Assembly (NCBI GenBank): GCA_048885865.1
Contig: JBHLLF010000039.1
Span: 1 to 24,524, forward strand
Direction: 5' to 3'
Length of the DNA stretch: 24,524 bases
Source: Candidatus Hermodarchaeota archaeon
GTDB lineage: Archaea > Asgardarchaeota > Thorarchaeia > Thorarchaeales > Thorarchaeaceae
Notes under the pieces: model-generated
The model's input: the letters and a program-made list of their open reading frames with translations, nothing else
Databases searched by the model: none
Told to the model about the DNA's origin: nothing
Made by a program: the position numbers and the translations under genes
Part shown: positions 4,696 to 17,506 of the stretch, piece by piece
How the letters are laid out: each line of letters begins with the position of its first letter
Position numbering within the stretch: position 1 is the stretch's first letter

Positions 4696-5589
4696 TTGCT
4701 CAGGAGGCTGACTTCTCGATTCAAAGGCAAAAAGAAGGAAGAGCCAAAGGTAGAGGATACACCAGTTGCCCGTCCTGAAACAACTAGGACAACCGCAGAA
4801 CCTCGTGAAACAACGCCTCCTGAAGAGATCGAGGCAGCACCCGGTCAGCCTTTCACAGCACCTCGAGAAACACCACGGGTAGGTCGTCGTGAGCCACTTC
4901 CAACAGGAACTCTTGTTGCTAGTACAGAAACAACCGAACTAAGGATTGACGAAGAGGCAACCTCCAATATTGCACGAGCCGCCCGAATCCGTCCTCAGTC
5001 CGTGTCGGAGATTGTTGCAGGAGAGGCCTTGAAACGAGATGAGGAAGGGCGTATCCACATCAAAATCGTATTCTATGGCCCATCACTCTCAGGCAAGACT
5101 ACTGCACTAAGATGGCTTTTTGCCAATGTTAGGGCATTAGCCAAGGGGAAGATAGTCGAGATTTCAGACGAGCTAGGCCGGACTACCTACTTCGACTTCA
5201 TACCTGTTTCTGCCGGTGAAAAGGTGATTTTTGACGTTTTCACTGTAGCAGGTCAACGAAGACATGCTACTCAGCGGATAAATGTTCTTCGAGGAGTAGA
5301 TGGCATGATCTTCATGGCAGACTCCACCCCTGAGCAGATGAACGAGAACTTGGCATCAATACAGGAGCTTCGTATCGCGCTTGGGACTGATCGCTTGGCG
5401 ACATTACCCATTGTAGTTTCGTTGAACAAACGAGACCTGCCAAATGCTCTGCCAGTAGACCGCATGATTCAGATGCTAGGCCTTGAAGGATATCCCGTAT
5501 TTGCCACAGTTGCCACTGAAGGAAAGAACCTCCTTAGAATGTTCCAGCGTATCCTCAGGGACTCGCTTGTCTACAAGGTCGGCGTTTAA
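4696..5589 (+). CDS. MglA-like small Ras-superfamily GTPase with ~115-aa disordered N-terminal extension
   Basis: KIVFYGPSLSGKTT (G1), RTTYFDF (G2), TVAGQ (MglA-type G3), NKRD (G4) and TVATEG (G5). TTG start after GGAGAGAGG. Confidence 0.88.
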   Translation: MLRRLTSRFKGKKKEEPKVEDTPVARPETTRTTAEPRETTPPEEIEAAPGQPFTAPRETPRVGRREPLPTGTLVASTETTELRIDEEATSNIARAARIRPQSVSEIVAGEALKRDEEGRIHIKIVFYGPSLSGKTTALRWLFANVRALAKGKIVEISDELGRTTYFDFIPVSAGEKVIFDVFTVAGQRRHATQRINVLRGVDGMIFMADSTPEQMNENLASIQELRIALGTDRLATLPIVVSLNKRDLPNALPVDRMIQMLGLEGYPVFATVATEGKNLLRMFQRILRDSLVYKVGV

Positions 5590-5687: not shown

Positions 5688-5763
5688 AGCCCCGTGGTGT
5701 AGCGGTCCAGCATCAGTGGTTCTGGCCCACTGGACCCAGGTTCGAGTCCTGGCGGGGCTACCA
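5688..5763 (+). tRNA. tRNA-Gln (anticodon CTG), CCA encoded, no intron
   Basis: Acceptor stem AGCCCCG/CGGGGCT, anticodon arm AGTGG-TT-CTG-GC-CCACT (CTG at 5722-5724), T arm CCAGG-TTCGAGT-CCTGG and 3' ACCA. The A1-U72 pair is typical of archaeal tRNA-Gln. Confidence 0.97.
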
Positions 5764-5931
5764 CCCTTTTACGCAATTTCCGTTCACTAGGCATCTTATT
5801 CGGTCAAAAACGGACTTTTGAATTCGATTTTTGCTATATAAAACTAAAAGAAAGAATTTTCGATTTATCGAACACGGCGCGCATTTTAGCGAAAACCTAT
5901 AGATTTATAGGCCAAACATCCGTCTCAGAAA

Positions 5932-6030
5932 GTTGGAGACGCAAGGCCCGCGTTCACGCTTTGTGTTCCTGTTGCTTCAGTCTGCGTCCCTCCCGGCGGA
6001 GATCAACAGGCTGCGGGTCTTCTCCACATC
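5932..6030 (+). ncRNA. Candidate structured small RNA of unknown class (overlaps a 36-aa TTG ORF at 5933-6043)
   Basis: TATA-like TTTATA at 5904-5909. Nested helices TGGAG/CTCCA, AAGGCCCGC/GCGGGTCTT, CCTGTTG/CAACAGG and TCTGC/GCGGA. G-U pairs indicate the + strand. Confidence 0.5.
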
Positions 6031-6119
6031 ATCCTACTTCTAAATAACGACGAATGCTATCCATCTCATAACAAGCTTCTTATCAACCTGCACGCAGAAA
6101 ATTCGCTGAGTGAGCGAAC

Positions 6120-6899
6120 ATGGAGCGCGTTGATTTCGGCTGGGATGAATTCTGGGCTGAGGTGTTCAGGGTCAAATACCGTCAAATCATTCCGGGAATT
6201 CAGCAATATGATAAGATGGTCGTTGAATTCTGCCTAGATGTCTTGGGCTTGAAGAAAGGAAAGAAGCTGCTCGACATAGCCTGTGGAGCCGGTGATCAGA
6301 GCATCCTTTTTGCAAAACACGGAATCAATGTTTCCGGATTTGACCTTTCAACAAAGCTCATTGAAATTGCCAAGGAGAAAGCAGCTGAAGCCAAATTTGA
6401 GGTGGATTTTTCGACGGGCGACATGAGGGAGATTGATTTTCCAAGTCAGTTTGATGCCGCGGTGCTTCTCAGTCATAGCTTTGGCTTCTTTAATCATGAT
6501 GAGAACAAGAGTGTTCTTGAGGGATCATTCAATGCCCTCGTTAAGGGGGGGAAACTTCTTCTTGACCTAATGAATCCCTACAATCTTCCGCGTTTCCAAA
6601 AGACATGGACAAAGATAGAGGATGGCTATCTGTTAAGTGAGCCTCATGTACTTGATGCACCATCAGGAGTACTAAGAGGACGTCCTGCATTATTCATTGA
6701 CATGGCTAATGGTCGCATAATCGAGATGAATGAAGATGCACTCGCTGGCAATGACATCCGAATGTACACTGCACTTGAAATTCGTGAGCTCCTAAAACAA
6801 GTGGGCTTTTCCAAGAGTGAGCTCTACGGACAAAACAAACTTCCGAAGATGCCATATGCCGCAAACTCTGAACGTATGGTTGTAATAGCCACCAAATAG
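6120..6899 (+). CDS. Class I SAM-dependent methyltransferase
   Basis: Motif I LLDIACGAG, GFDLS, GDMRE, FDAAV, SFGFF and GGKLLLD. Confidence 0.9.
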   Translation: MERVDFGWDEFWAEVFRVKYRQIIPGIQQYDKMVVEFCLDVLGLKKGKKLLDIACGAGDQSILFAKHGINVSGFDLSTKLIEIAKEKAAEAKFEVDFSTGDMREIDFPSQFDAAVLLSHSFGFFNHDENKSVLEGSFNALVKGGKLLLDLMNPYNLPRFQKTWTKIEDGYLLSEPHVLDAPSGVLRGRPALFIDMANGRIIEMNEDALAGNDIRMYTALEIRELLKQVGFSKSELYGQNKLPKMPYAANSERMVVIATK

Positions 6900-6910
6900 A
6901 GTCCCATGAC

Positions 6911-7039
6911 GATAATCTTTTAAGAATCCGTAAGGCTCTCCGCGCTAGCCACCGAGGCCTTCGGTGACCCCAACCTAGTTCTCTTGGAACTATGACTTAG
7001 AAGTTGGGGTCAGACTATTCGTAAATAAGGTGAATCCAA
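6911..7039 (+). promoter_or_regulatory. Promoter and structured 5' leader of the EF-2 paralog
   Basis: TATA-like TTTTAA (~6918-6923). Helices CACCGA/TCGGTG, TGACCCCAAC/GTTGGGGTCA and TAGTTC/GAACTA. SD AGGTGA lies before the TTG start. Confidence 0.55.
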
Positions 7040-9253
7040 TTGGTCAAGATAAAGGACCCAGACGCAATAAAGAGACTCATTATGTCAGATGATTATGAGC
7101 ATAAGAGAATCATCTCAATCAGCGCACATATCGATCACGGCAAAACTACCACCACAGACTATCTTATGCGCCGTGCAGGTCTTATGAGTGACGCCGCTGC
7201 GGGTCAAGCTCTAATGACGGATAGCGACGAGGAAGAGCAGGAAAGAGGTATCACAATTTTCACCTCTGTTGTACTGCTTAACTTTGAAGTTGATGGGGAA
7301 GAGTATTTGGTGCAGCTTTCCGATACTCCTGGCCATCTTTCGTTCACTGGTGAGGTTTCTCGTGCACTGCGAGCCAGCGATGGGGCTGTAATTCTAGTTG
7401 ACGCTCTTGAAGGAGTGATGACTCAAACCGAAACTAACATTCGGCTTGCAGTTGGTGGAGAAGCATGTAAGCCCGTCCTTTTTGTAAATAAGGTGGATAG
7501 GCTGATCAACGAGTTGAAACTTCCTCCAAAGAAAGTCTACGAGAGAATTGACATCATTGTTGCAAAGGTCAACGAACTCATCAAGAAGGTTGCACCCAAG
7601 GAATATGCGAAGGATTGGAGAGTCAAGTTCGAGGACGGCAGTGTTGCGATTGGTAGTGCAAAGACTGGATGGGCCTTCACTATGAAGACACTTCAAAAGA
7701 AGGAGATTCAGCCTATCGTTGTGTTTGAGAAGTACAATGAGGGTGATGAGAGATGGCTAAGGGAAAACCTGCCACTGGATGATGCCCTTCTGGAAATGAT
7801 TGTAAACCATCTTCCAGATCCAAAGGAGGCTCAAAAATACAAGATTCCACGCATCTGGAAGGGTGATCTTGAAAGCGTAGAAGGCAAGGCGCTTCTTGAG
7901 TGTGATCGCAATGGCCCTCTGCTTGGAATGATTACCAAGATTTTCGTCGACCCGAAAAGCAAGAGACCCACTCTTATTGGGAGAGTCTTTTCTGGTACTG
8001 TTAAGTCTGGGCAGTCTATTCGCTTGGTCAATATGAAGCAGAATGCTACAGTAAAACGGCTAGGTGTCCAAGAGATTACTGACATTTTGCCTATGGATGA
8101 AGTTCCAGCAGGGAACCTGTTCTCTGTGTTCGGATTCATGTGTCCATCTGGTGAGTCCTTTGTGACGGTGGACTCTGATATGCAGGGCTTTGAGGCCATA
8201 GAGTATGTCAGTGAACCTGTTGTTAGCAGAAGCATCAAACCAGTTGATCCTCAGGACATTGCAAAACTGGGTGAAGTTGTTTCAAAATGGATTATGGCTG
8301 ATCCAACAGCAAGATTCATTCATGATAAGGAATCTGGCGAGTACCGTCTTGATGGAATAGACCCTCTACAAATTGAGATTCTGACTAAACGAATCAACGA
8401 ACAGGTGAAGATTATCATATCGGAGCCAATCATTGTCTATCGTGAGAAGATCACCGAACGTGGTCAGGAGTTTCACACGAAATCTCCAAACGGTCATAAT
8501 CGTCTAAGACTGTTCGTAGAGCCTCTGGATGAGAAGACTATCGAACTCATCAAGAAGAAGAGGATTACTAGGGACATGAACTCACGTGAGCGCGCAGCCA
8601 TTCTCCGCGATGAGGCAGGATGGGATGCGAAGGAAGCTCGCAAGATTCTTGATATCTACGAATCAAGCATGCTTGTCGATGCCATGAGTGGTGTGCAGCG
8701 ATTCGACAGAATCTACTCATATCTCGAAACCACATTTCGTGAGTTTATAGACCAAGGACCGATAGCAAAAGAGCCCGTCATGGGTGTTAAGGTAGTACTT
8801 ACAGATGCAACGGTTCACACTGACCCTGCACACACTGGCTACAACGAAGTTGCCACGATGACCAGTTCTGGTCTTAACATGAGCTTCCTCACTGGTGCTG
8901 CAGGTCTCTACGAGCCAATTTTGAATGCAGACATCAAGACTCCGACTGATACGCAGGGGGGCATCATCAAAGTGCTTACTGGTCATCGAGGTCAGATTGT
9001 TACGATTGAGGCTGAGGAAGACACGGTCACAATCAGAGGAACATTACCAACAGCGGAGACCATTGGCATTGCCGATGAGTTTCGCAGTGCTGCTGCCGGT
9101 AGAAGCTTCTTTGGCTATGAGTTTCGAGGATTCGAGCCATTGCCTGGAAATATGCAGGAAGAAAAGATTCTGGAGATTCGGGCACGGAAAGGCATGCCAG
9201 AGGAGATGCCGTCTACAAGTTCTTGGAGTCGTTGGGTCTACAAGCGGACTTAA
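7040..9253 (+). CDS. Archaeal elongation factor 2 family GTPase, probably the diverged paralog aEF-2p
   Basis: Motifs AHIDHGKTT, ERGITI, DTPGH, NKVD, KSPNGHNR and C-terminal IRARKG. The diphthamide loop reads HTDPAHTG rather than ...HRG, and the gene is not flanked by S12/S7 genes. Confidence 0.9.
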   Translation: MVKIKDPDAIKRLIMSDDYEHKRIISISAHIDHGKTTTTDYLMRRAGLMSDAAAGQALMTDSDEEEQERGITIFTSVVLLNFEVDGEEYLVQLSDTPGHLSFTGEVSRALRASDGAVILVDALEGVMTQTETNIRLAVGGEACKPVLFVNKVDRLINELKLPPKKVYERIDIIVAKVNELIKKVAPKEYAKDWRVKFEDGSVAIGSAKTGWAFTMKTLQKKEIQPIVVFEKYNEGDERWLRENLPLDDALLEMIVNHLPDPKEAQKYKIPRIWKGDLESVEGKALLECDRNGPLLGMITKIFVDPKSKRPTLIGRVFSGTVKSGQSIRLVNMKQNATVKRLGVQEITDILPMDEVPAGNLFSVFGFMCPSGESFVTVDSDMQGFEAIEYVSEPVVSRSIKPVDPQDIAKLGEVVSKWIMADPTARFIHDKESGEYRLDGIDPLQIEILTKRINEQVKIIISEPIIVYREKITERGQEFHTKSPNGHNRLRLFVEPLDEKTIELIKKKRITRDMNSRERAAILRDEAGWDAKEARKILDIYESSMLVDAMSGVQRFDRIYSYLETTFREFIDQGPIAKEPVMGVKVVLTDATVHTDPAHTGYNEVATMTSSGLNMSFLTGAAGLYEPILNADIKTPTDTQGGIIKVLTGHRGQIVTIEAEEDTVTIRGTLPTAETIGIADEFRSAAAGRSFFGYEFRGFEPLPGNMQEEKILEIRARKGMPEEMPSTSSWSRWVYKRT

Positions 9254-9365
9254 ATCAGAATAATTGTGAGCGAGGACCAGCGCGTCTTCGCTCAAACTCC
9301 TTTCTTTTTGATACTCACACACTTTCGATGGATATTTGTCCTGCTGTGCGACTTGTTCAACTACC

Positions 9366-10697
9366 ATGAACGGGGATGTTGTAGAAGAACTGGAAACATT
9401 GGTGTCATTTCAGACAATAAGTGATCCACTGGATAAAAGAGCAAACTTGGGTTGCGCACAGTATATTGGCAACAGACTTGAAGACGCTGGTTTCATCTCA
9501 GAAATAATCGAGTTTGAGGGGTATCACACGGTCTATGGTCGGTATGGCCAAGGCGAGTTCAAAATACTCTTCCTAGCCCATTTTGATGTTGTACCTGTGG
9601 GTGAAGGTTGGGAGTCTGACCCCTTCAAGCTCCGTGTTGATGGAGATATCGCTTATGGCCGAGGCTCATCCGATAACAAGGGAAATATCGTGTCACTTCT
9701 TCTCTTGGCGGATAGACTGAAAGAGAGCGCATTCCCTTGCACTGTTATCATCGCTGCTAGTGGTGATGAGGAGATTGGCGGAAGAAATGGCGCTTTCAAG
9801 CTCAAGGAGCATCTCATCAAGCAGGGTCTTTTTCCAGACTATGCAGTCATAACTGATAGTGTAGGCCAGCAAATCATTCATCGCCGACGGAATGTGTTGC
9901 CTACCTACATCAAGGCAAAGAAATCTGTCGCTAAGATGCGAGGCAGAGCAGAAACAATTAGATTTGAGACCGATGTTTTCGGCTCAACATCCCGGCACTC
10001 AGCTTACATGCGGCCAAGTGTGGACCGACATGCGATGCTTGCAGCCTCCAAATATCTTGATGTAAACCCGTATACCGTCGTGAAGGATGTTAGAGGTGCT
10101 TTCCTGAAATCGAATGTCGTACCTGGATGGATTGAGGTTGACCTCCTCCATCCCGATGCGTCACAACCAGAATCAGAATACGACGAAGCTCTAACCGGCC
10201 TTATGAGAGCACTTCTTCCCCTATCAAACGCGGCCTTTCCAACTGAACATTCAGACCACGGAAGAATAATCTCGCCCAATCTCTTATCTATTGAGGGTGA
10301 TCTCTGGAATCTTTATTGTGATATTCGTGCAATGACAAATGACGGAGAAGCTGTGGAGAGGGCTATCCAGAGAGCACTGGAGGGGCGTGTTGATCTGTTC
10401 TCATTGCGTGTGAGCCCTGGCGTCGGATATGTCGACACTGATCCAAACTCGAGCCTGATACGAGCCGCGCGATGGGCTCTTGAGAAGGAACAGATTCCAC
10501 ACAGGGTGATCGAGGGATATGGCGCCTCTGATTCTCGTTTCTTTGCTGGAGAGGGATGTGAGCTATTCGACTTTGGGCCACGTGGTGGTAACACCCACGG
10601 GCCGAATGAGTGGGTATCAGTCTCCTCAATAAAGGAGAACGCTGATTTCTATCATACTCTGATAGACGTGCTCTTGAGAAAGCCAGGAGGACTATGA
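9366..10697 (+). CDS. M20/M25/M40 family metallo-hydrolase (ArgE/DapE-like)
   Basis: Metal and catalytic motifs AHFDVVP, GRGSSDNKG, GDEEIGG, GASDSRFF and HGPNE. ATG 9366 is preferred over the upstream TTG 9336. Confidence 0.88.
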   Translation: MNGDVVEELETLVSFQTISDPLDKRANLGCAQYIGNRLEDAGFISEIIEFEGYHTVYGRYGQGEFKILFLAHFDVVPVGEGWESDPFKLRVDGDIAYGRGSSDNKGNIVSLLLLADRLKESAFPCTVIIAASGDEEIGGRNGAFKLKEHLIKQGLFPDYAVITDSVGQQIIHRRRNVLPTYIKAKKSVAKMRGRAETIRFETDVFGSTSRHSAYMRPSVDRHAMLAASKYLDVNPYTVVKDVRGAFLKSNVVPGWIEVDLLHPDASQPESEYDEALTGLMRALLPLSNAAFPTEHSDHGRIISPNLLSIEGDLWNLYCDIRAMTNDGEAVERAIQRALEGRVDLFSLRVSPGVGYVDTDPNSSLIRAARWALEKEQIPHRVIEGYGASDSRFFAGEGCELFDFGPRGGNTHGPNEWVSVSSIKENADFYHTLIDVLLRKPGGL

Positions 10698-10719
10698 CCC
10701 TCTGTTCTGCCTATCTCAT

Positions 10720-13700
10720 CTATTTGCTAAGAGCTATCGCTACCACAAGATTCTCCTCGCCGAACTTGTATTCCTCTTGGAAATCCCCGCCCGGTTTCTT
10801 AACCTGTTTCACGCTGGTCGCTAGCGTTTCTTCTGTGATGTATTGCTGATGGAACTCAACCGCTTCAGCTAATCGGTTGCTTGATGAATATTGGACCTCT
10901 ATCCTATCATTGACATTCAGATCGGCTGACTTACGCACATCTTGAACCCGTCTTACGAATTCTCGTGCCAATCCTTCAAGTTCCAGCTCCCGTGTCAACT
11001 CGGTGGTCAAGGCAGCAAGATATCCTCCCTCGGAAGCTGTCGAAAAGCCCTCTTTAGCTTCAACTATGACTTCGACTTCATCAGGCAGTATTTCGAATTT
11101 CTCACCATTCACCTCTACTTCAACAGATTTGCCAGCCTGAAGTTGCGTTGAAGCTTCACGGGGATCTAGACTTAGTATTGCACTTCTAAGGGCTGGGAAC
11201 TGAGAGCCGTACTTCTGACCCAGCTGTTTGGGGAGCGGCTTGAGCTGGTAACTTACTACCTCTGCGGTGACATCCAGCAATCGAACGCTCTTGACATTCA
11301 ACTCATCGCCTAGCAATTCTGCATAGCGCATCACGACATCTCGTTCTTTATCCAATCCAACTGTAAATGCTATCTCAGACAATGGTTGGCGGAGCTTGCG
11401 ATTTGCTTTGTTTCTCGCAGCATGTCCCAATGAAACTAATCTCAGTACAAGTGCCATCTCGCTATTAAGGACCTCATCCACAGCATCACTCACTGGCCAA
11501 TCGCAATGATGCACACTCTCAGCTGCATCTGAATGCACGCTTCGGACTATATTCTGATGCATAACTTCAGACACAAACGGTACAAATGGCGCTAGCAATC
11601 GAGAGAGTTTCACTAAAACTCGATATAACGTGTCATAAGCTGCATTCTTGTCGGCATCTTCCTCATCACTCGACCCAGCTTCCACCCAGAAACGGCGACG
11701 GCTTCGTCGGAGATACCAGTTACTCAGGTGATCTATGAATCGGTCTACAACAGCAGCCGCCATGTTTGGTTCATATGATTCCAAGAATGCTGTAACATCT
11801 TGAGCAACCTCGTTCATCCGGGAGAGTATCCATCGGTCTAGTAAGCTGGGCGTTGTCTTCAAGCCCTTCTTGGGAACCCAACCGTCAATGAGGGCATATG
11901 TGACAAAGAAAGAATAGACATTCCACAGCGGTATGAGAAAATGCCTCCGCACTTCATCGCCACGAGCATATCCAAAGGCAAGGTCCTTCTCAGGCTTGTG
12001 CAAACAGTAGAGCCATCGCATCACGTCCACACCCATTGAGTCAGCAGCCTCATTGAATTCTATCATGTTCCCCCATGACTTGTGCATCTCTCTTCCATCG
12101 TCAGCAGTCAAAAGGGCATAGGTGAAGACATGCCTGAATGGTGCTTTACGTTCGAGTATAGTGCTCATTGCGAGAAGGCTATAGAACCAATTTCTAAATT
12201 GACCTGGAAAACTCTCGCTGATGAGGTCTGCAGGGAACCACTTGTTCCAGTACTTCCTATCTGAGTTGTACCTCATTGTACTCATTGCAACTATTCCCGC
12301 ATCCAGCCAGGGATTACCCACGTCTGGTATTCGCTTCATTATCTCGCCGCATTCGCTACATTCTATCTCGATCTCATCGATGAATGGTCTGTGAGGTGAG
12401 TGACCTTCGAAGGCATCCCATCCAACCAAAGCTCGTTCTTGTAGTTCTTCTCTACTCCCTACCACCTCGAAATGACTGCAACTCGTACATTCCCATATGG
12501 GCAATGCAAGACCCCAATAGCGTTTCTTAGATATCATCCAGTCATCCATGTTCCGCAGCCAATCCAACTCCCTTTCCTTGCCAAAGGATGGATACCAATT
12601 GGTTTCCTCAGTAACTACCTCCATTATCTGGTATCGAAGATTCTCATCTTTCTGCTCTTCGGTGACCTCTTCATAGGGTACGTCAAGTTTGGTCCCCATC
12701 GAGATGAACCACTCATCAACGAGACGAAAGACCAATTCTTCCTGGCAACGCCAGCATACAGGGTATCGATGCGTATAGTCCTCAACCTTGTAGGTCAATC
12801 CCTTTTCAGTCAAATTGTCGAAGATTGGTTGGGCGACCTCATTGACATTCATCCCAGACAACCAGTCAAACCCTTCGATGAAGATACCATTTTCGGTAAG
12901 AGGCGCTATTGCGACAAGATCAAACTCCTTGGAGAGTTGGAAGTCCTCAGCTCCGCAGCCAGGTGCAATGTGCACTATACCCGTTCCTTCCTCTTCTCCC
13001 ACTTCATCCCAGAGTATCACTTTGTGCTTTCCTGAAACTCCACTCTCCTTCTGAGCCGGAAGCTCGTCAAATGGACCATGATATGTCCAACCCTCTATGT
13101 CAAATCCAAGCATTTCCTCCTCGACTTCGTAGTCGCCCTTCAGCATGTGCAGAGTCCCTCGACTCAAGTAGAATACTTCCTTGCCCTGACGTACCTTCAC
13201 ATAGGTCAGCTCTGGACCTACTGCAGCAGCCACATTGCTGCTCAGAGTCCAAGGAGTCGTGGTCCATATCAGAAGACTCTCACCGGGTCGATCAACCAAG
13301 GGGAATCTCAACGTTATACTGGGGTGTGTCAGCTCACGATAGCCTTCAGTGACTATCTCATGTTGGCTAATAGCTGTTCCGCACCTAGCACACCAAGGCA
13401 TGACGTCTCTGCCCTTGTATATCCATCCTCTATCATGACATGACTTCAAAACAGTCCAAATAGTGTAATTGTTCTCTTCGGAAAATGTGTAGTATGAACC
13501 GCCAAGTTCGGGCATTCCAAGCCTTCCTACTAGCTGCTCAACTGTGCCAGTAACTGGTCCCTCAACACCCTCAAGAGTCATGACTGCCAACGGATCATCA
13601 TCAAGTGCATCATGGAGAGTCTTGAGAGTTTCCAGGTTGTCCCAGTCCATCCAAAATCCTAGCCGTTTGCTTTGCTCGGTCATTACTCCAGCATATTTCA

Positions 13701-14073
13701 GGACTCGCTGCTTGCACAATATGATGAATTTCTCGAGTCCAAAATCCTCTATGTCTTGCTTCCCCTTAAAGCCCATATCTCGTTCAACATTGACCTCCAC
13801 CCAGAGTCCTTGACAATCAAAGCCATTCTGATATCGTGTATGATGCCCCTGCATTGCATTGAATCGATGGTATAGGTCCTTGTATGTCCGTCCCCATCCA
13901 TGATGAACGCCCATAGGATTATTGGCGGTGATAGGGCCGTCAATAAACGACCATATCGGGCTTTTCGCCCTCAATTTCCTCAGCTTCTCAAAGATTTGCT
14001 GGGCTTCCCAAAACTTGAGTATCTCCTTCTCCTGAGCAACGAAATCAACTTGGCTGGATACTGGTTTAAACAT
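10720..14073 (-). CDS. ileS: Isoleucine--tRNA ligase (type 2 IleRS) with variant signature motifs
   Basis: Motifs DGPITAN, GFDCQGLWVE, editing WTTTPWT and GTGIVHIAPG, DWMISKKRYWG, and IleRS2 C-terminal EGLAREFVRRVQDVRK. The HIGH position is GVHH and the KMSKS position is EMHKS. SD GGTGAT. Confidence 0.95.
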   Translation of the reverse strand: MFKPVSSQVDFVAQEKEILKFWEAQQIFEKLRKLRAKSPIWSFIDGPITANNPMGVHHGWGRTYKDLYHRFNAMQGHHTRYQNGFDCQGLWVEVNVERDMGFKGKQDIEDFGLEKFIILCKQRVLKYAGVMTEQSKRLGFWMDWDNLETLKTLHDALDDDPLAVMTLEGVEGPVTGTVEQLVGRLGMPELGGSYYTFSEENNYTIWTVLKSCHDRGWIYKGRDVMPWCARCGTAISQHEIVTEGYRELTHPSITLRFPLVDRPGESLLIWTTTPWTLSSNVAAAVGPELTYVKVRQGKEVFYLSRGTLHMLKGDYEVEEEMLGFDIEGWTYHGPFDELPAQKESGVSGKHKVILWDEVGEEEGTGIVHIAPGCGAEDFQLSKEFDLVAIAPLTENGIFIEGFDWLSGMNVNEVAQPIFDNLTEKGLTYKVEDYTHRYPVCWRCQEELVFRLVDEWFISMGTKLDVPYEEVTEEQKDENLRYQIMEVVTEETNWYPSFGKERELDWLRNMDDWMISKKRYWGLALPIWECTSCSHFEVVGSREELQERALVGWDAFEGHSPHRPFIDEIEIECSECGEIMKRIPDVGNPWLDAGIVAMSTMRYNSDRKYWNKWFPADLISESFPGQFRNWFYSLLAMSTILERKAPFRHVFTYALLTADDGREMHKSWGNMIEFNEAADSMGVDVMRWLYCLHKPEKDLAFGYARGDEVRRHFLIPLWNVYSFFVTYALIDGWVPKKGLKTTPSLLDRWILSRMNEVAQDVTAFLESYEPNMAAAVVDRFIDHLSNWYLRRSRRRFWVEAGSSDEEDADKNAAYDTLYRVLVKLSRLLAPFVPFVSEVMHQNIVRSVHSDAAESVHHCDWPVSDAVDEVLNSEMALVLRLVSLGHAARNKANRKLRQPLSEIAFTVGLDKERDVVMRYAELLGDELNVKSVRLLDVTAEVVSYQLKPLPKQLGQKYGSQFPALRSAILSLDPREASTQLQAGKSVEVEVNGEKFEILPDEVEVIVEAKEGFSTASEGGYLAALTTELTRELELEGLAREFVRRVQDVRKSADLNVNDRIEVQYSSSNRLAEAVEFHQQYITEETLATSVKQVKKPGGDFQEEYKFGEENLVVAIALSK

Positions 14074-14243
14074 CTACATCACCGACTCTGGCACTGATAA
14101 TCCATGCAGCTAGAGCAATTCAAAAGCCGAATAGGTTCGCAATCAAAGAATGGACTACGTTGAGTTTCACATGTGCTAGTGAATTTGGCAATCCATCCTT
14201 GTCCACCTTTAGTACTCCTTCCTGCAACCGACCCCGTTAAAAA
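14074..14243 (-). promoter_or_regulatory. ileS promoter and ~140-nt structured 5' leader
   Basis: Minus-strand TTTTTAA at 14243-14237. A 13-bp helix AAGGATGGATTGC/GTAGTCCATTCTT with three G-U pairs encloses a TTCAC/GTGAA hairpin. Confidence 0.45.
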
Positions 14244-14358
14244 GCTTAGGCTAAGCATACTTGACCTTTCATAATGTCCCCTTGAAACAACCAAGACTTA
14301 ATTGTCACTTGCGAAGGAAGAATCTCTGCAATCAAGGACTTGAAGGTGACCTGAGCAA

Positions 14359-15027
14359 ATGAGTTCTCTTGAAGACAGGCCATTAGATAAGCTAGCAGAT
14401 ATGATACTGAATGTCCTTTGGCAAGACCTTCTTGAAGTCTGGAGCGCTATTAGAAACAAGATGGACACTGAAGGTGATGATGCCGTTCGAACGGCTTTTG
14501 AAGAAGCCAGAAGTAGATTCCTCCAAGGACCCTTCGCAGATCATCTCGAAGTTCGATGGGGAATGGACTTGTGTGTTCACTGCAATGATGACAACATTGA
14601 GAAGAATGGCATTGCATATGTGAAGCCGAACGGCGATGGTCTCGAGTTCAATCAATGCTTGAACTGCCATATCGGGATTCTCTACGGTTTGGTATCTGCG
14701 AAGGCTACAATGGACACTTACAACATCGCACTTGGGAAGCCTGGACAATTTAATGGGATGTCCTTCTTTTGGAATGCAATTGTTCCCGATTCATTAAAGA
14801 AATACCAGCCAACATACGAAGTCATCCACGATGGACAGTGGATAGGCACAGTCTCTTTTGACAAAGCGCTCACACCAAGGTATCTCGCCTTCACTGCTAT
14901 GATAGAGTCCAATGCACGAGATGCTGAGGAGCAATGGACCTCAGAGATTCCAGAAGACTTGCGTCACGCCATTGATGCATTTCTGGATGTAGCTCGCCAT
15001 CAAGTTGAAGTTGCACTTGTCCTTTGA
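14359..15027 (+). CDS. Hypothetical protein with CxxC-x24-CxxC putative zinc site
   Basis: 222-aa ORF with AGGTGA SD and motifs CVHC and CLNC. No family recognised. Confidence 0.7.
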   Translation: MSSLEDRPLDKLADMILNVLWQDLLEVWSAIRNKMDTEGDDAVRTAFEEARSRFLQGPFADHLEVRWGMDLCVHCNDDNIEKNGIAYVKPNGDGLEFNQCLNCHIGILYGLVSAKATMDTYNIALGKPGQFNGMSFFWNAIVPDSLKKYQPTYEVIHDGQWIGTVSFDKALTPRYLAFTAMIESNARDAEEQWTSEIPEDLRHAIDAFLDVARHQVEVALVL

Positions 15028-15030
15028 GCA

Positions 15031-15351
15031 ATGTATCAGGTGACAATGTTGCCAGAGAAGCTAGTTCGTGACAGGATTCCTGAGATCATTAAGCAAAAAG
15101 GTGGAGATCCACAAATTCGGATTGCTACTGGACCTGAACTTGACAAGCTGATCAGGCGCAAAGTAGCAGAGGAAGCTCAAGAACTGCTAATCTCTGGGGA
15201 GGATGAGGAGATCGCAGATGTTCTCGAAGCATTAGACGCTCTAATAGCACATCGAGCAATGAACCGTGCATCAATAGAGAAGGCACGCTTGAAGAAACGC
15301 CTTGAAAGGGGTGGGTTTGAGAAAGGATTTGTCCTCGAGATGCAAGATTGA
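15031..15351 (+). CDS. MazG-like/PRA-PH nucleoside triphosphate pyrophosphohydrolase
   Basis: Motifs KLVRDRIPEII, KVAEEAQE, EEIADVLE and KRLERGGF. The start may be ATG 15046. Confidence 0.85.
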   Translation: MYQVTMLPEKLVRDRIPEIIKQKGGDPQIRIATGPELDKLIRRKVAEEAQELLISGEDEEIADVLEALDALIAHRAMNRASIEKARLKKRLERGGFEKGFVLEMQD

Positions 15352-15476
15352 ACATGCCCCTTTTCATACTCGGAAGTTTCGGACAAAGGTTATATTGCAA
15401 AAACCTCGCACCCCGCTTTAGAATACCACCCTGTTCAGTGGTGGTTCCATATAGTGATTATGGAGTGGAATGATTT

Positions 15477-17120
15477 ATGGCAACTGATGAAGTCAAGCCG
15501 GTTCCAGAGGAACCCGTCACTCATGAGGATTCTGGCGGTTATGCTAGGTTTCAGGTAGAGAAGTATCCTGAGAGGCAGCTTCCCTACAAGACACAATCGA
15601 TCTGTCCTGAGTGCTTCTTGACAAATGATGATGTTAAGGTAATAGATGCCACGCTCTATGAGGAAGATGGGAAGGTCATGTACAAGAAGACCTGTGATGA
15701 GCATGGCGAGTTTATTGACGTTTATTGGGGCGACGCTAAGATGTTTAGAGAGGCGTCGAAATGGTGGTACAAGTCAGTGGGTCTAGACAATCCCAGAACT
15801 GAAACAGTAAAGGGATGTCCAGAAGACTGCGGGCAATGTCCCGAACACAAATCACACACTGCACTGGCTCTTCTGGACGTCACGAATAGATGCAATCTAA
15901 GATGTCCAATCTGCTTCGCTGTAGCTGCAGAAGGCGGAACAGTCTATGAGCCTACCCCTGAGGAAGTCTTTGACATGATGGTCAACCTCAGGAGCAATGA
16001 GCCAGTTCCCGCACCTGCTCTTCAGTTCGCAGGCGGTGAGCCCACAGTCAGCAAGCATCTGCCTCAGTACATAAGATGGGCGAAGGAGCTGGGCTTTAGA
16101 CATGTCCAGATTGCGAGCAATGCTATCAGGATTGGAAAGAGCAAGGAGTATTTCCAAGAACTTAGAGACGCAGGACTGTCCACTGTGTATATGCAGTTCG
16201 ACGGTATCACACCTGATCCCTACATCGAAGCACGTGGTTCAAACTTGCTGCCTGTCAAGAAGCAAGCCATTCAGAATGCTCGAGAAATTGGGATGGAGTC
16301 TCTTGTTCTTGTACCAACCGTCGTGAGAGGTGTAAACGAAGATCAAGTTGGCGGTATCATCGAGTTTGCAGTTGAGAACAGGGATGTCATTCGGTGTGTG
16401 AACTTCCAGCCAGTGAGCATCACGGGTCGCATTGACCATGATGCACGTAACGAGATGAGGATCACCATTCCCGATGTCATTCATCTGATTGAGGAACAGA
16501 CTGGTGGAAAGATACCAGCGGACGCATGGTATCCAGTTCCAGCGATGATGCCTGTAGGTAGAGCTCTTGGTCTCATGAAGGGCACTCCCCAGCTTGAGCT
16601 CAGCACTCACTTTGCTTGTGGGATGTCCACATTCATCTACATTAACGAGGATGGCGATTACGAGCCAATTACCAACTTGATCGATGTTTCCAAGTTCCTG
16701 GTTCTACTTGAGGACATTTCCAACCTCTTTGCACAGCAAAAGACTGGTGCTAGTGCACGTGCAAAAGCAAAGCTTGCCGCTGGTGCTAGGCACATCAAGA
16801 GAAAGGGAATCATCAAGGACCTTCTTTCGGCTTTCCTTAATCGAGGCGACTACGAGTCATTGGCAAAGTTCATGCGAAGAATAATCATGATTGGCCTTAT
16901 GCACTTCCAGGACCCCTACAATCTGGATCTGGAACGTATCCAACACTGCGATGTCAACTACGCAGCACCTGATGGTCGGATTATTCCGTTCTGCACCATG
17001 AACACCATCCACAGGTCAAGACTGGAAGACAAGTTCGCTCAGCCATTGGATCAGTGGAGGAACAGACACAAGCCCAGTCAGGTTGAAGAAGAGAGCATCT
17101 CAAAGCCTTACAAGGGATAG
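15477..17120 (+). CDS. tes: Tetraether lipid synthase (Tes / GDGT-MAS, MJ0619-family radical SAM enzyme)
   Basis: N-terminal SICPEC...KTCDEHG, GCPEDCGQCPEHKSHT, radical SAM CNLRCPIC, GGEPT, MQFDG, NFQPVS, HFACG, MHFQDPYN and DGRIIPFC. Confidence 0.88.
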   Translation: MATDEVKPVPEEPVTHEDSGGYARFQVEKYPERQLPYKTQSICPECFLTNDDVKVIDATLYEEDGKVMYKKTCDEHGEFIDVYWGDAKMFREASKWWYKSVGLDNPRTETVKGCPEDCGQCPEHKSHTALALLDVTNRCNLRCPICFAVAAEGGTVYEPTPEEVFDMMVNLRSNEPVPAPALQFAGGEPTVSKHLPQYIRWAKELGFRHVQIASNAIRIGKSKEYFQELRDAGLSTVYMQFDGITPDPYIEARGSNLLPVKKQAIQNAREIGMESLVLVPTVVRGVNEDQVGGIIEFAVENRDVIRCVNFQPVSITGRIDHDARNEMRITIPDVIHLIEEQTGGKIPADAWYPVPAMMPVGRALGLMKGTPQLELSTHFACGMSTFIYINEDGDYEPITNLIDVSKFLVLLEDISNLFAQQKTGASARAKAKLAAGARHIKRKGIIKDLLSAFLNRGDYESLAKFMRRIIMIGLMHFQDPYNLDLERIQHCDVNYAAPDGRIIPFCTMNTIHRSRLEDKFAQPLDQWRNRHKPSQVEEESISKPYKG

Positions 17121-17130
17121 TACTCCCAGC

Positions 17131-17176
17131 TGGGATGAAGGAGCTCTGCTCCTCATCTCACTCATCTTTTACTTTA
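17131..17176 (+). terminator. 3' hairpin plus T-rich tract after tes
   Basis: TGGGATGA-a-GGAGC-tct-GCTCC-TCATCTCA, followed by CTCATCTTTTACTTT. Confidence 0.55.
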
Positions 17177-17370
17177 AGAAAGAAACTTTTTCAGTGCTGA
17201 AACTTAGAGTATGTTTCTAATTCTCGGCTCCGCCCCTTCAAAAACGCAACAAAGGCGCGCTTTACAGAGGTCTAGAAAACCAACTTCAGAGGGGACTTTA
17301 AGAATACTTAACAAGATGCTCTATCCGCATGCCATAAATTTAATAAGTTAGCTCAGCACTAGGCCTTTAA

Positions 17371-17506
17371 CGCGGTGGGTGTGTGGGACATGTCCATCGC
17401 TACAATATATGAACGGCGAGCATGTGGGCTAGTTTTTCGTTACATGCCCTCAATTACGAAACTCCCCCCTCCTACCACGATTTCCCGCGTGCTCGCCACC
17501 TCCTAA
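17371..17506 (+). ncRNA. Candidate structured small RNA or small-ORF mRNA (38-aa ATG ORF at 17390-17506)
   Basis: TATA-like TTTAATAA (~17339-17346). A 14-bp helix GGCGAGCATGTGGG/CCCGCGTGCTCGCC has two G-U pairs. It encloses a TTTCGT/ACGAAA hairpin and a C-rich loop. Confidence 0.5.

Follow-up and report, generated by a model that had tools for sequence, protein, structure and literature searches.

The 24.5-kb contig JBHLLF010000039.1 of a Candidatus Hermodarchaeota archaeon (C39 of a 3.58-Mb assembly, 46% GC), analysed here over its whole length and referred to as the window, carries genes for aEF2, IleRS, an Arf-like GTPase, the tetraether lipid synthase Tes and a PhzF-family protein, among others (Pfam, NCBIfam). 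A tRNA-Gln(CUG) gene at 5688-5763 is the sole Rfam (E<=1) or ARAGORN match in the window. Two intergenic elements, both on the + strand, are the subject of this analysis: E1, at about 5935-6030, lies between the tRNA-Gln gene and a methyltransferase gene, and E2, at about 17370-17505, lies between the Tes gene and phzF. An initial annotation had suggested that the two might form one family, of either anti-Shine-Dalgarno-presenting small RNAs (sRNAs) or mRNAs for small peptides. Our data point to a different account, in which E1 and E2 are probably two distinct, non-homologous small structured noncoding RNA (ncRNA) genes, each with its own TATA promoter and neither encoding a peptide. The features on which this account is built are the following.

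5904-5909, + strand: TATA box of the putative E1 promoter, TTTATA within ACCTATAGATTTATAGG; sequence and position kept in 20 orthologous loci.
5935-6030, + strand: predicted E1 RNA of ~95 nt, a three-way junction (covariance model R2 match at 5933-6030, 109 bits).
5984-5998, + strand: conserved apex of E1, GCGUCCCUCCCGGCG, with the apical loop CCUCCC at 5989-5994.
6070-6086, + strand: promoter-like box of the methyltransferase gene, ACAAGCTTCTTATCA, lying between E1 and the gene.
6120-6899, + strand: class I S-adenosylmethionine (SAM)-dependent methyltransferase gene (Pfam and NCBIfam).
17339-17346, + strand: TATA box of the putative E2 promoter, TTTAATAA / AACTTTAATAAG, kept in 18 orthologous loci.
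17372-17400, + strand: 5' hairpin of E2, found in subfamily A only (predicted fold), with the G-rich 5' arm GGUGGG.
17415-17500, + strand: E2 core, comprising the closing helix, a large loop and a 3' ACC (covariance model R1, 113 bits).
17442-17477, + strand: near-invariant family core of E2, ACAUGCCCUCA ... CUCCCCCCUCCUACCA, in 99 aligned members from all subfamilies.

The distribution of the two elements was followed with the covariance models R1, built from relatives of E2 (alignment A2), and R2, built from 14 orthologs of E1 (alignment A3), in an order sample of 87 genomes and an outgroup sample of 123 genomes from 25 other Asgard families. Covariation was scored in two larger alignments, A5 with 37 E1 orthologs and A4 with 99 E2-family members taken from named Thorarchaeota contigs, using slid pairing partners and 500 shuffles as controls.

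The layout first described for E1, a TTTATA box at 5904-5909 followed ~25 nt on by a fold that is closed by its own ends and exposes CCUCCC, was borne out, with the same spacing of ~25 nt between the box and the predicted RNA 5' end in the 20 orthologous loci. Helix P1 consists of GGAG/CUCC plus AAGGCCCGC/GCGGGUCUU, with a 4-nt bulge, and P3 of CCUGUUG/CAACAGG plus GUCU/AGAU plus CGUC/GGCG. The P2 hairpin is present in every genus, its sequence and length being wholly different from one genus to another. By comparison, the loop CCUCCC is shared by 37/37 aligned orthologs, which represent all genera, and the apex around it, GCGUC...GGCG, hardly changes. Compensatory changes occur at 18 of the 26 pairs in A5, where 96% of the cells are paired (vs. 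41-56% with slid partners) and none of the 500 shuffles scored as well. The + strand of E1 folds better than shuffled sequence (z-score -2.0) while the minus strands of both E1 and E2 fold no better, and the strand of the RNAs is fixed by the G-U pairs. We place the transcript ends of both RNAs, provisionally, by promoter spacing. A candidate pseudoknot between a 5' GACGCA and the loop segment UGCGUC is compatible with most orthologs; the changes seen in locus L038 (GACACA, UACGUC) are not compensatory and locus L040 lacks the pairing. The AT-rich spacer from the tRNA-Gln gene to the E1 TATA box (5785-5870) contains direct repeats of the TTTCGATTT type (tcgatttttgc ... ttcgatttatcg).

E1 was detected by R2 in 79 of the 87 genomes of the order and is single-copy, each genome that bears it giving one match, save for one extra partial match at a contig end. 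It was present in all of the genomes in a separate sample of the family (26/26), and was not found in the sister family nor in the 123 other Asgard genomes. Taken together with its promoter and its pyrimidine-rich tail, these data make E1 a likely separately promoted, single-copy structured ncRNA gene restricted to Thorarchaeota.

For E2 too, the layout proposed initially was confirmed, with TTTAATAA at 17339-17346, a 5' hairpin and a 14-bp helix enclosing an unpaired CUCCCCCCUCCUACCA. The closing helix (17415-17428/17484-17497) surrounds CUCCCCCCUCCUACCA at 17462-17477, the C-rich tract of the loop having a predicted unpaired probability of 0.98, as does the CCUCCC loop of E1. The fold z-score of the + strand is -3.4 for E2 as a whole and -5.7 for its core. 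Among the 99 members in A4 the family core, YGUWACAUGCCCUCA-(0-7 nt)-UAACUCCCCCC(C)UCCUACCA, is almost unchanged, whereas the closing helix varies freely: compensatory changes are seen at all 14 of its 14 pairs, 91% of the cells are paired compared to 40-58% with slid partners, and the covariation score was reached by 0/500 shuffles. Across the family the covarying end helix measures 14-25 bp and the enclosed C-rich loop ~45-65 nt. Subfamilies B, C and D have a conserved CTTATTAGG or CTTAATAGG box about 22-25 nt ahead of the terminal helix (GUGG.../...CCAC), and the position of this box implies a panhandle whose helix has 21-25 bp and whose 3' end overhangs as A(A)CCUC. A helix followed by ACC is visible in representatives of the E2 subfamilies, which otherwise have nothing tRNA-like.

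The 5' hairpin that distinguishes subfamily A has arms that covary between genera (e.g. GGUAGG/CCUAUC and GGAGGG/CCCUCC), the G-rich arm being GGURGG or GGAGGG in genera other than that of the source organism. In the window's copy as in these forms, the arm is also complementary to the CCUACC or CCCUCC of the loop, and may thus permit an alternative, self-masking pairing.

R1 detected the E2 family in 86 of the 87 order genomes, each of which gave 1-11 matches (roughly 300 in total), and in none of the 123 genomes of the 25 other Asgard families (0/123). An exact-pattern scan for the E2 loop, using one genome per species, gave named matches that were all metagenome-assembled genomes (MAGs) of Candidatus Thorarchaeota or Promethearchaeota, which marks the source organism as a Thorarchaeon and hence an Asgard archaeon. 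E2 itself is one of three copies in the source genome, with paralogs on contigs C34 and C43. The three copies have different neighbours, one of them faces a convergent gene, and the ATG of phzF, the gene downstream of E2, is preceded at 27 nt by a separate TATA-like box; E2 is therefore not a leader. The riboswitch or 5' leader that might have been suspected here is rejected, given a promoter-like box of phzF that appears to lie at a fixed distance from the ATG. The simplest explanation is that E2 is a separately promoted member of a multi-copy Thorarchaeota ncRNA family with a pyrimidine-rich tail, which we consider likely as part of the same two-gene account.

Several further observations concern the copies of the E2 family. 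Contig ends often fall inside them (e.g. G080:C13:1-68, G081:C7:1-68, G078:C224:1-91 and G008:C6:4-97), from which we conclude that near-identical copies break assemblies and that the copy numbers counted in MAGs (1-11) are lower bounds. Tandem pairs exist, such as two copies 240 nt apart in G095:C26. The C43 paralog in the source genome has an extra hairpin of ~23 nt, capped by cUUCGg, immediately after the invariant CCUACCA (L002:2960-2985), and sister copies of this paralog in other genomes are without it; on a first look it shows no clear bulge-helix-bulge motif. Lastly, the 3' tail of E2, CACCUCCUAA at 17497-17506, repeats exactly the final 10 bases of the 16S rRNA 3' end, GGAUCACCUCCUAAGC (G000 C21). 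The tail reads CACCUUCU, CACCUCAU or CACCUACU in orthologs, so that the agreement does not extend beyond the closest relatives, and it is probably a coincidence of pyrimidine-rich terminators.

The comparative data show that E1 and E2 are real genes, constrained at the RNA level and distributed as described above, and their conserved promoters suggest that both are transcribed. Known RNA classes did not account for either: Rfam (E<=1), tRNA (ARAGORN) and 5S searches gave nothing at E1 or E2. Identity as a tRNA or tRNA-like RNA was rejected, the tRNA finders recognising only the tRNA-Gln gene at 5688-5763. A CUUCAGU segment that raised the possibility of a tRNA-Sec in E1 turned out to be a bulge in P3, in a molecule with no T arm and with an acceptor-like helix interrupted by a 4-nt bulge. 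Canonical genes for 5S rRNA (G000 C5:48416-48535, 58.7 bits, as also in two closed genomes) and for signal recognition particle (SRP) RNA lie elsewhere, so that 5S and SRP RNA identities were rejected for E1. No paper on small RNA families of Thorarchaeota was found, and a literature search on Asgard sRNA families returned nothing relevant. E1 and E2 are thus two previously uncatalogued Thorarchaeota RNA gene families, alike only in their CCUCC-containing loop. Among known archaea, the Asgard archaea stand closest to eukaryotes and, to our knowledge, none of their small RNAs has been characterised experimentally. The two RNA genes described here, strongly supported by comparative data and absent from Rfam, can now be annotated in Thorarchaeota genomes with the R1 and R2 models. 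Their loop sequences, the methyltransferase gene linked to E1 and the putative masking 5' hairpin of E2 provide handles on what may be post-transcriptional control or a new RNA-protein particle.

The invariant C-rich loops would serve in one of two ways, by pairing with G-rich, Shine-Dalgarno (SD)-like RNA or by binding a conserved protein. The source organism uses SD sites: the motifs GGAGG, AGGAG and GGTGA have their maximum at positions -14 to -8 ahead of the ATG (2083 open reading frames, ORFs). The sequence CCUCCUA is common to the E2 loop and the 16S rRNA 3' end. We tentatively propose, at somewhat less than even odds, that E1 and E2 act in trans: the exposed C-rich tract of each RNA would pair with G-rich, SD-like stretches of mRNAs, and pairing at these stretches would block ribosome binding. 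The additional 5' hairpin of subfamily A could, through its G-rich arm, mask the C-rich tract of E2.

This proposal has precedents in sRNAs that block ribosome binding in this way. LhrC of Listeria is a C-rich-loop sRNA present in several sibling copies, a property it shares with E2. RsaA-K and RsaE/RoxS are base-pairing sRNAs of Firmicutes with a UCCC motif in a C-rich loop (PMC2790875, PMC6158497). Like E1 and E2, the Firmicutes RNAs are independent small units in which a conserved C-rich tract, complementary to GGAGG-type ribosome-binding sites, is held unpaired on a stable stem. In sequence terms, E1 and E2 have the attributes by which such sRNAs are recognised, namely conserved putative promoters, a conserved C-rich motif predicted to be unpaired and an SD-using host. 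They differ from the Firmicutes sRNAs in showing no sequence or model similarity (Rfam is empty at E<=1), in their archaeal host, in the length of the conserved tract of E2 (~45 nt instead of a short seed) and in the lack of enrichment at start sites described below. Another parallel is provided by sRNA41 and sRNA154 of Methanosarcina mazei, intergenic sRNAs shown experimentally to mask ribosome-binding sites through anti-ribosome-binding-site loops (PMC5867862). E1 and E2 resemble these two in being archaeal and intergenic and in having the same type of loop sequence; the comparison is by description only (sRNA41 is not known to be represented in Rfam) and spans different phyla, and the function of E1 and E2 is inferred whereas that of sRNA41 and sRNA154 is experimental.

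Several observations weigh against the pairing proposal. Complementarity to the E2 loop at or below -14 kcal/mol (<=-14 kcal/mol) was found at 123 start regions vs. 108 internal controls, an enrichment of only 1.14-fold, which is lower than that of the reversed-loop control (1.46-fold) and far lower than that of the 16S tail (2.4-fold). The E1 loop gave a ratio of 1.45-fold, close to that of the reversed-loop control; gene starts were crudely called for this ratio, as for that of E2. No long exact complement of the E2 loop (14-mer, <=2 mismatches) exists in rRNA, its few near matches being dispersed, and a search of the genome for long loop complements yielded no rRNA or tRNA partner, only scattered strong SD-like sites of the UAGGAGGGG type. 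Finally, the near-invariance of a ~45-nt loop across paralogs and 17 genera points to a constraint in excess of what a base-pairing seed needs, and suggests a protein or a fixed RNA partner. Of the idea that these are undescribed archaeal anti-SD-presenting sRNAs, the shared look therefore stands (an unpaired CCUCC tract in an SD-using host), while a shared ancestry does not, and the genome-wide test gave no specific support for the targeting of ribosome-binding sites.

The main rival to anti-SD pairing is a functionally analogous ribonucleoprotein (RNP). In this explanation, which we regard as possible although not probable, the RNAs of the E2 family (and E1 perhaps as well) serve a conserved protein as scaffold or decoy, much as Y RNA, vault RNA or CsrB do, and the invariant loop is a protein-binding surface rather than an mRNA seed. 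A variant of the same explanation has the RNA mimic the C-rich 16S 3' end and bind a factor for which that end is the target, as the CCUCCUA common to loop and 16S rRNA might suggest. The rigidity of the loop of this order-wide, multi-copy family, set against the free variation of its helix, suggests a fixed molecular partner, and the lack of specific enrichment at mRNA start sites is easily accommodated. The architecture also agrees: as in Y RNA/Ro60 and vault RNA, the 5' and 3' ends of E2 pair to form a long stem on which a pyrimidine-rich loop is held open, in an RNA of ~90-130 nt that ends in a short 3' tail and has several paralogs in a genome. The loop sequence of E2 is, however, unrelated to theirs, Rfam gives no Y_RNA or vault match, and no TROVE/Ro60 gene was found in 41 family genomes (0/41, of which 23 are at least 90% complete), in searches whose controls gave matches. 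The absence of a TROVE gene excludes membership of the Y RNA class, leaving a terminal stem and a pyrimidine-rich loop that match in architecture only. It also tells against the scaffold explanation in general that the three copies in the source genome have no conserved neighbouring gene.

A more specific form of this explanation, which we think rather improbable when taken as a whole, makes the E2 panhandles RNA subunits of a Thorarchaeia-specific RNP and E1 the dedicated RNA partner or substrate of the methyltransferase. The E2 subunit might then take either of two forms: a decoy that mimics the C-rich 16S 3' end and titrates a ribosome-maturation or initiation factor, or a minihelix with a 3' ACC that is acted on by tRNA-end enzymes such as RNase P or the CCA-adding enzyme.

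The association between E1 and the methyltransferase gene deserves consideration in its own right. The gene follows E1, co-oriented with it, wherever an examined locus includes the downstream flank. Orthologs of the gene (59-100% identity) were present in 25 of 26 family genomes, and the other Asgard families of the phylum sample had nothing above 35% identity. E1 and the methyltransferase thus share the same narrow distribution (family only, 25-26 of the 26 genomes). The single exception to their co-occurrence in the sample is G051 (genus g27, 91% complete), which has E1 at C1:104171-104269 and no methyltransferase at E<=1e-20. One explanation of this pattern would be that E1 is a cis-acting, riboswitch-like leader or a dedicated RNA partner of the methyltransferase and not a general trans regulator. 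We consider this unlikely. Across genera, a conserved promoter-like box belonging to the methyltransferase gene itself stands at a fixed distance of ~35-48 nt ahead of the ATG, while the pyrimidine-rich, terminator-like spacer from E1 to this box varies from ~13 to 160 nt; E1 would therefore be a separate unit, not part of the methyltransferase transcript. In addition, E1 and the gene are 0.6-2 kb apart in some genomes and no Rfam riboswitch matches at E1 (E<=1). The whole block is syntenic regardless, and the tie between the two is for this reason a lead rather than proof.

A common origin of E1 and E2, as the initial annotation had proposed, is very improbable. They do share a TATA box, a helix closed by the RNA ends, an unpaired CCUCC-containing loop and a CCAC-type 3' end, and in many genera one conserved synteny block contains both, at a distance of 10-17 kb from each other. 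Their covariance models nevertheless fail reciprocally. In scans of the window with all filters off and a threshold of E<=10, R1 found E2 at 113 bits and did not list E1, its next best match scoring 10.7 bits, while R2 found E1 at 109 bits and did not list E2. R2 likewise never matched an E2 copy across the 87 genomes. By the criterion that the initial annotation itself set, a single family is refuted, and E1 and E2 are two non-homologous RNA families. In agreement with this, blastn detects no similarity between them, their folds differ (a three-way junction for E1, a panhandle with one large loop for E2), as do their copy numbers, and the identity of their 3' arms at 12 of 17 positions, although real, is at chance level: comparing the best 17-mer match of E1 with 200 random 136-nt segments of the window, we found that 12/17 or better was reached in 63/200.

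The other half of the original suggestion, that E1 and E2 are mRNAs for type I toxin-like peptides of ~37 residues whose translation is blocked by the fold, is barely tenable. Two ORFs that span the elements do exist and stop just past the helix:

5933-6043, + strand: chance ORF of 36 codons with a TTG start, across E1; not a gene.
17390-17506, + strand: chance ORF of 38 codons, across E2; not a gene.

The E1 peptide even contains a hydrophobic stretch, FVFLLLQ. Neither start, stop nor frame is kept among orthologs or paralogs, however, and the peptide-mRNA reading is thereby refuted. In 26 distinct E1 orthologs, compared after anchoring on the invariant apex, the start moves or is lost (the putative TTG varying T/A/C), P2 indels of ~10 nt disrupt the upstream frame, several congeners retain only 17 codons owing to a stop 27 nt past the anchor, and all three reading frames are open to a similar extent. 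The E2 family has 92 distinct start/stop layouts in 124 distinct members; subfamilies B and C read AUG CCC UCA UAA, stopping after 3 codons, and the alternation between 6 and 7 C in the loop shifts the frame. With neither frame conserved, the loose alignment of the two peptides loses its support. Substitutions in both elements track base pairs and not codons, and a false lead towards hidden peptide genes or a toxin-like module is removed.

A few observations on neighbouring genes complete the description of the window. The radical SAM gene upstream of E2 (15477-17120) encodes the tetraether (glycerol dialkyl glycerol tetraether, GDGT) lipid synthase Tes (NCBIfam NF045702, 626 bits); a methanopterin enzyme, hinted at by the name of a Pfam zinc-ribbon, was rejected on the strength of this assignment. 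Between the IleRS and Tes genes (14359-15351) lie two ORFs of 222 and 106 residues without a Pfam or NCBIfam match. Just upstream of the tRNA-Gln gene, 4696-5589 encodes a protein of 297 residues whose C-terminal domain is a small GTPase of the Arf/Ras type (Pfam Arf, E 6e-10), proteins of this type being typical 'eukaryotic signature' proteins of Asgard archaea.

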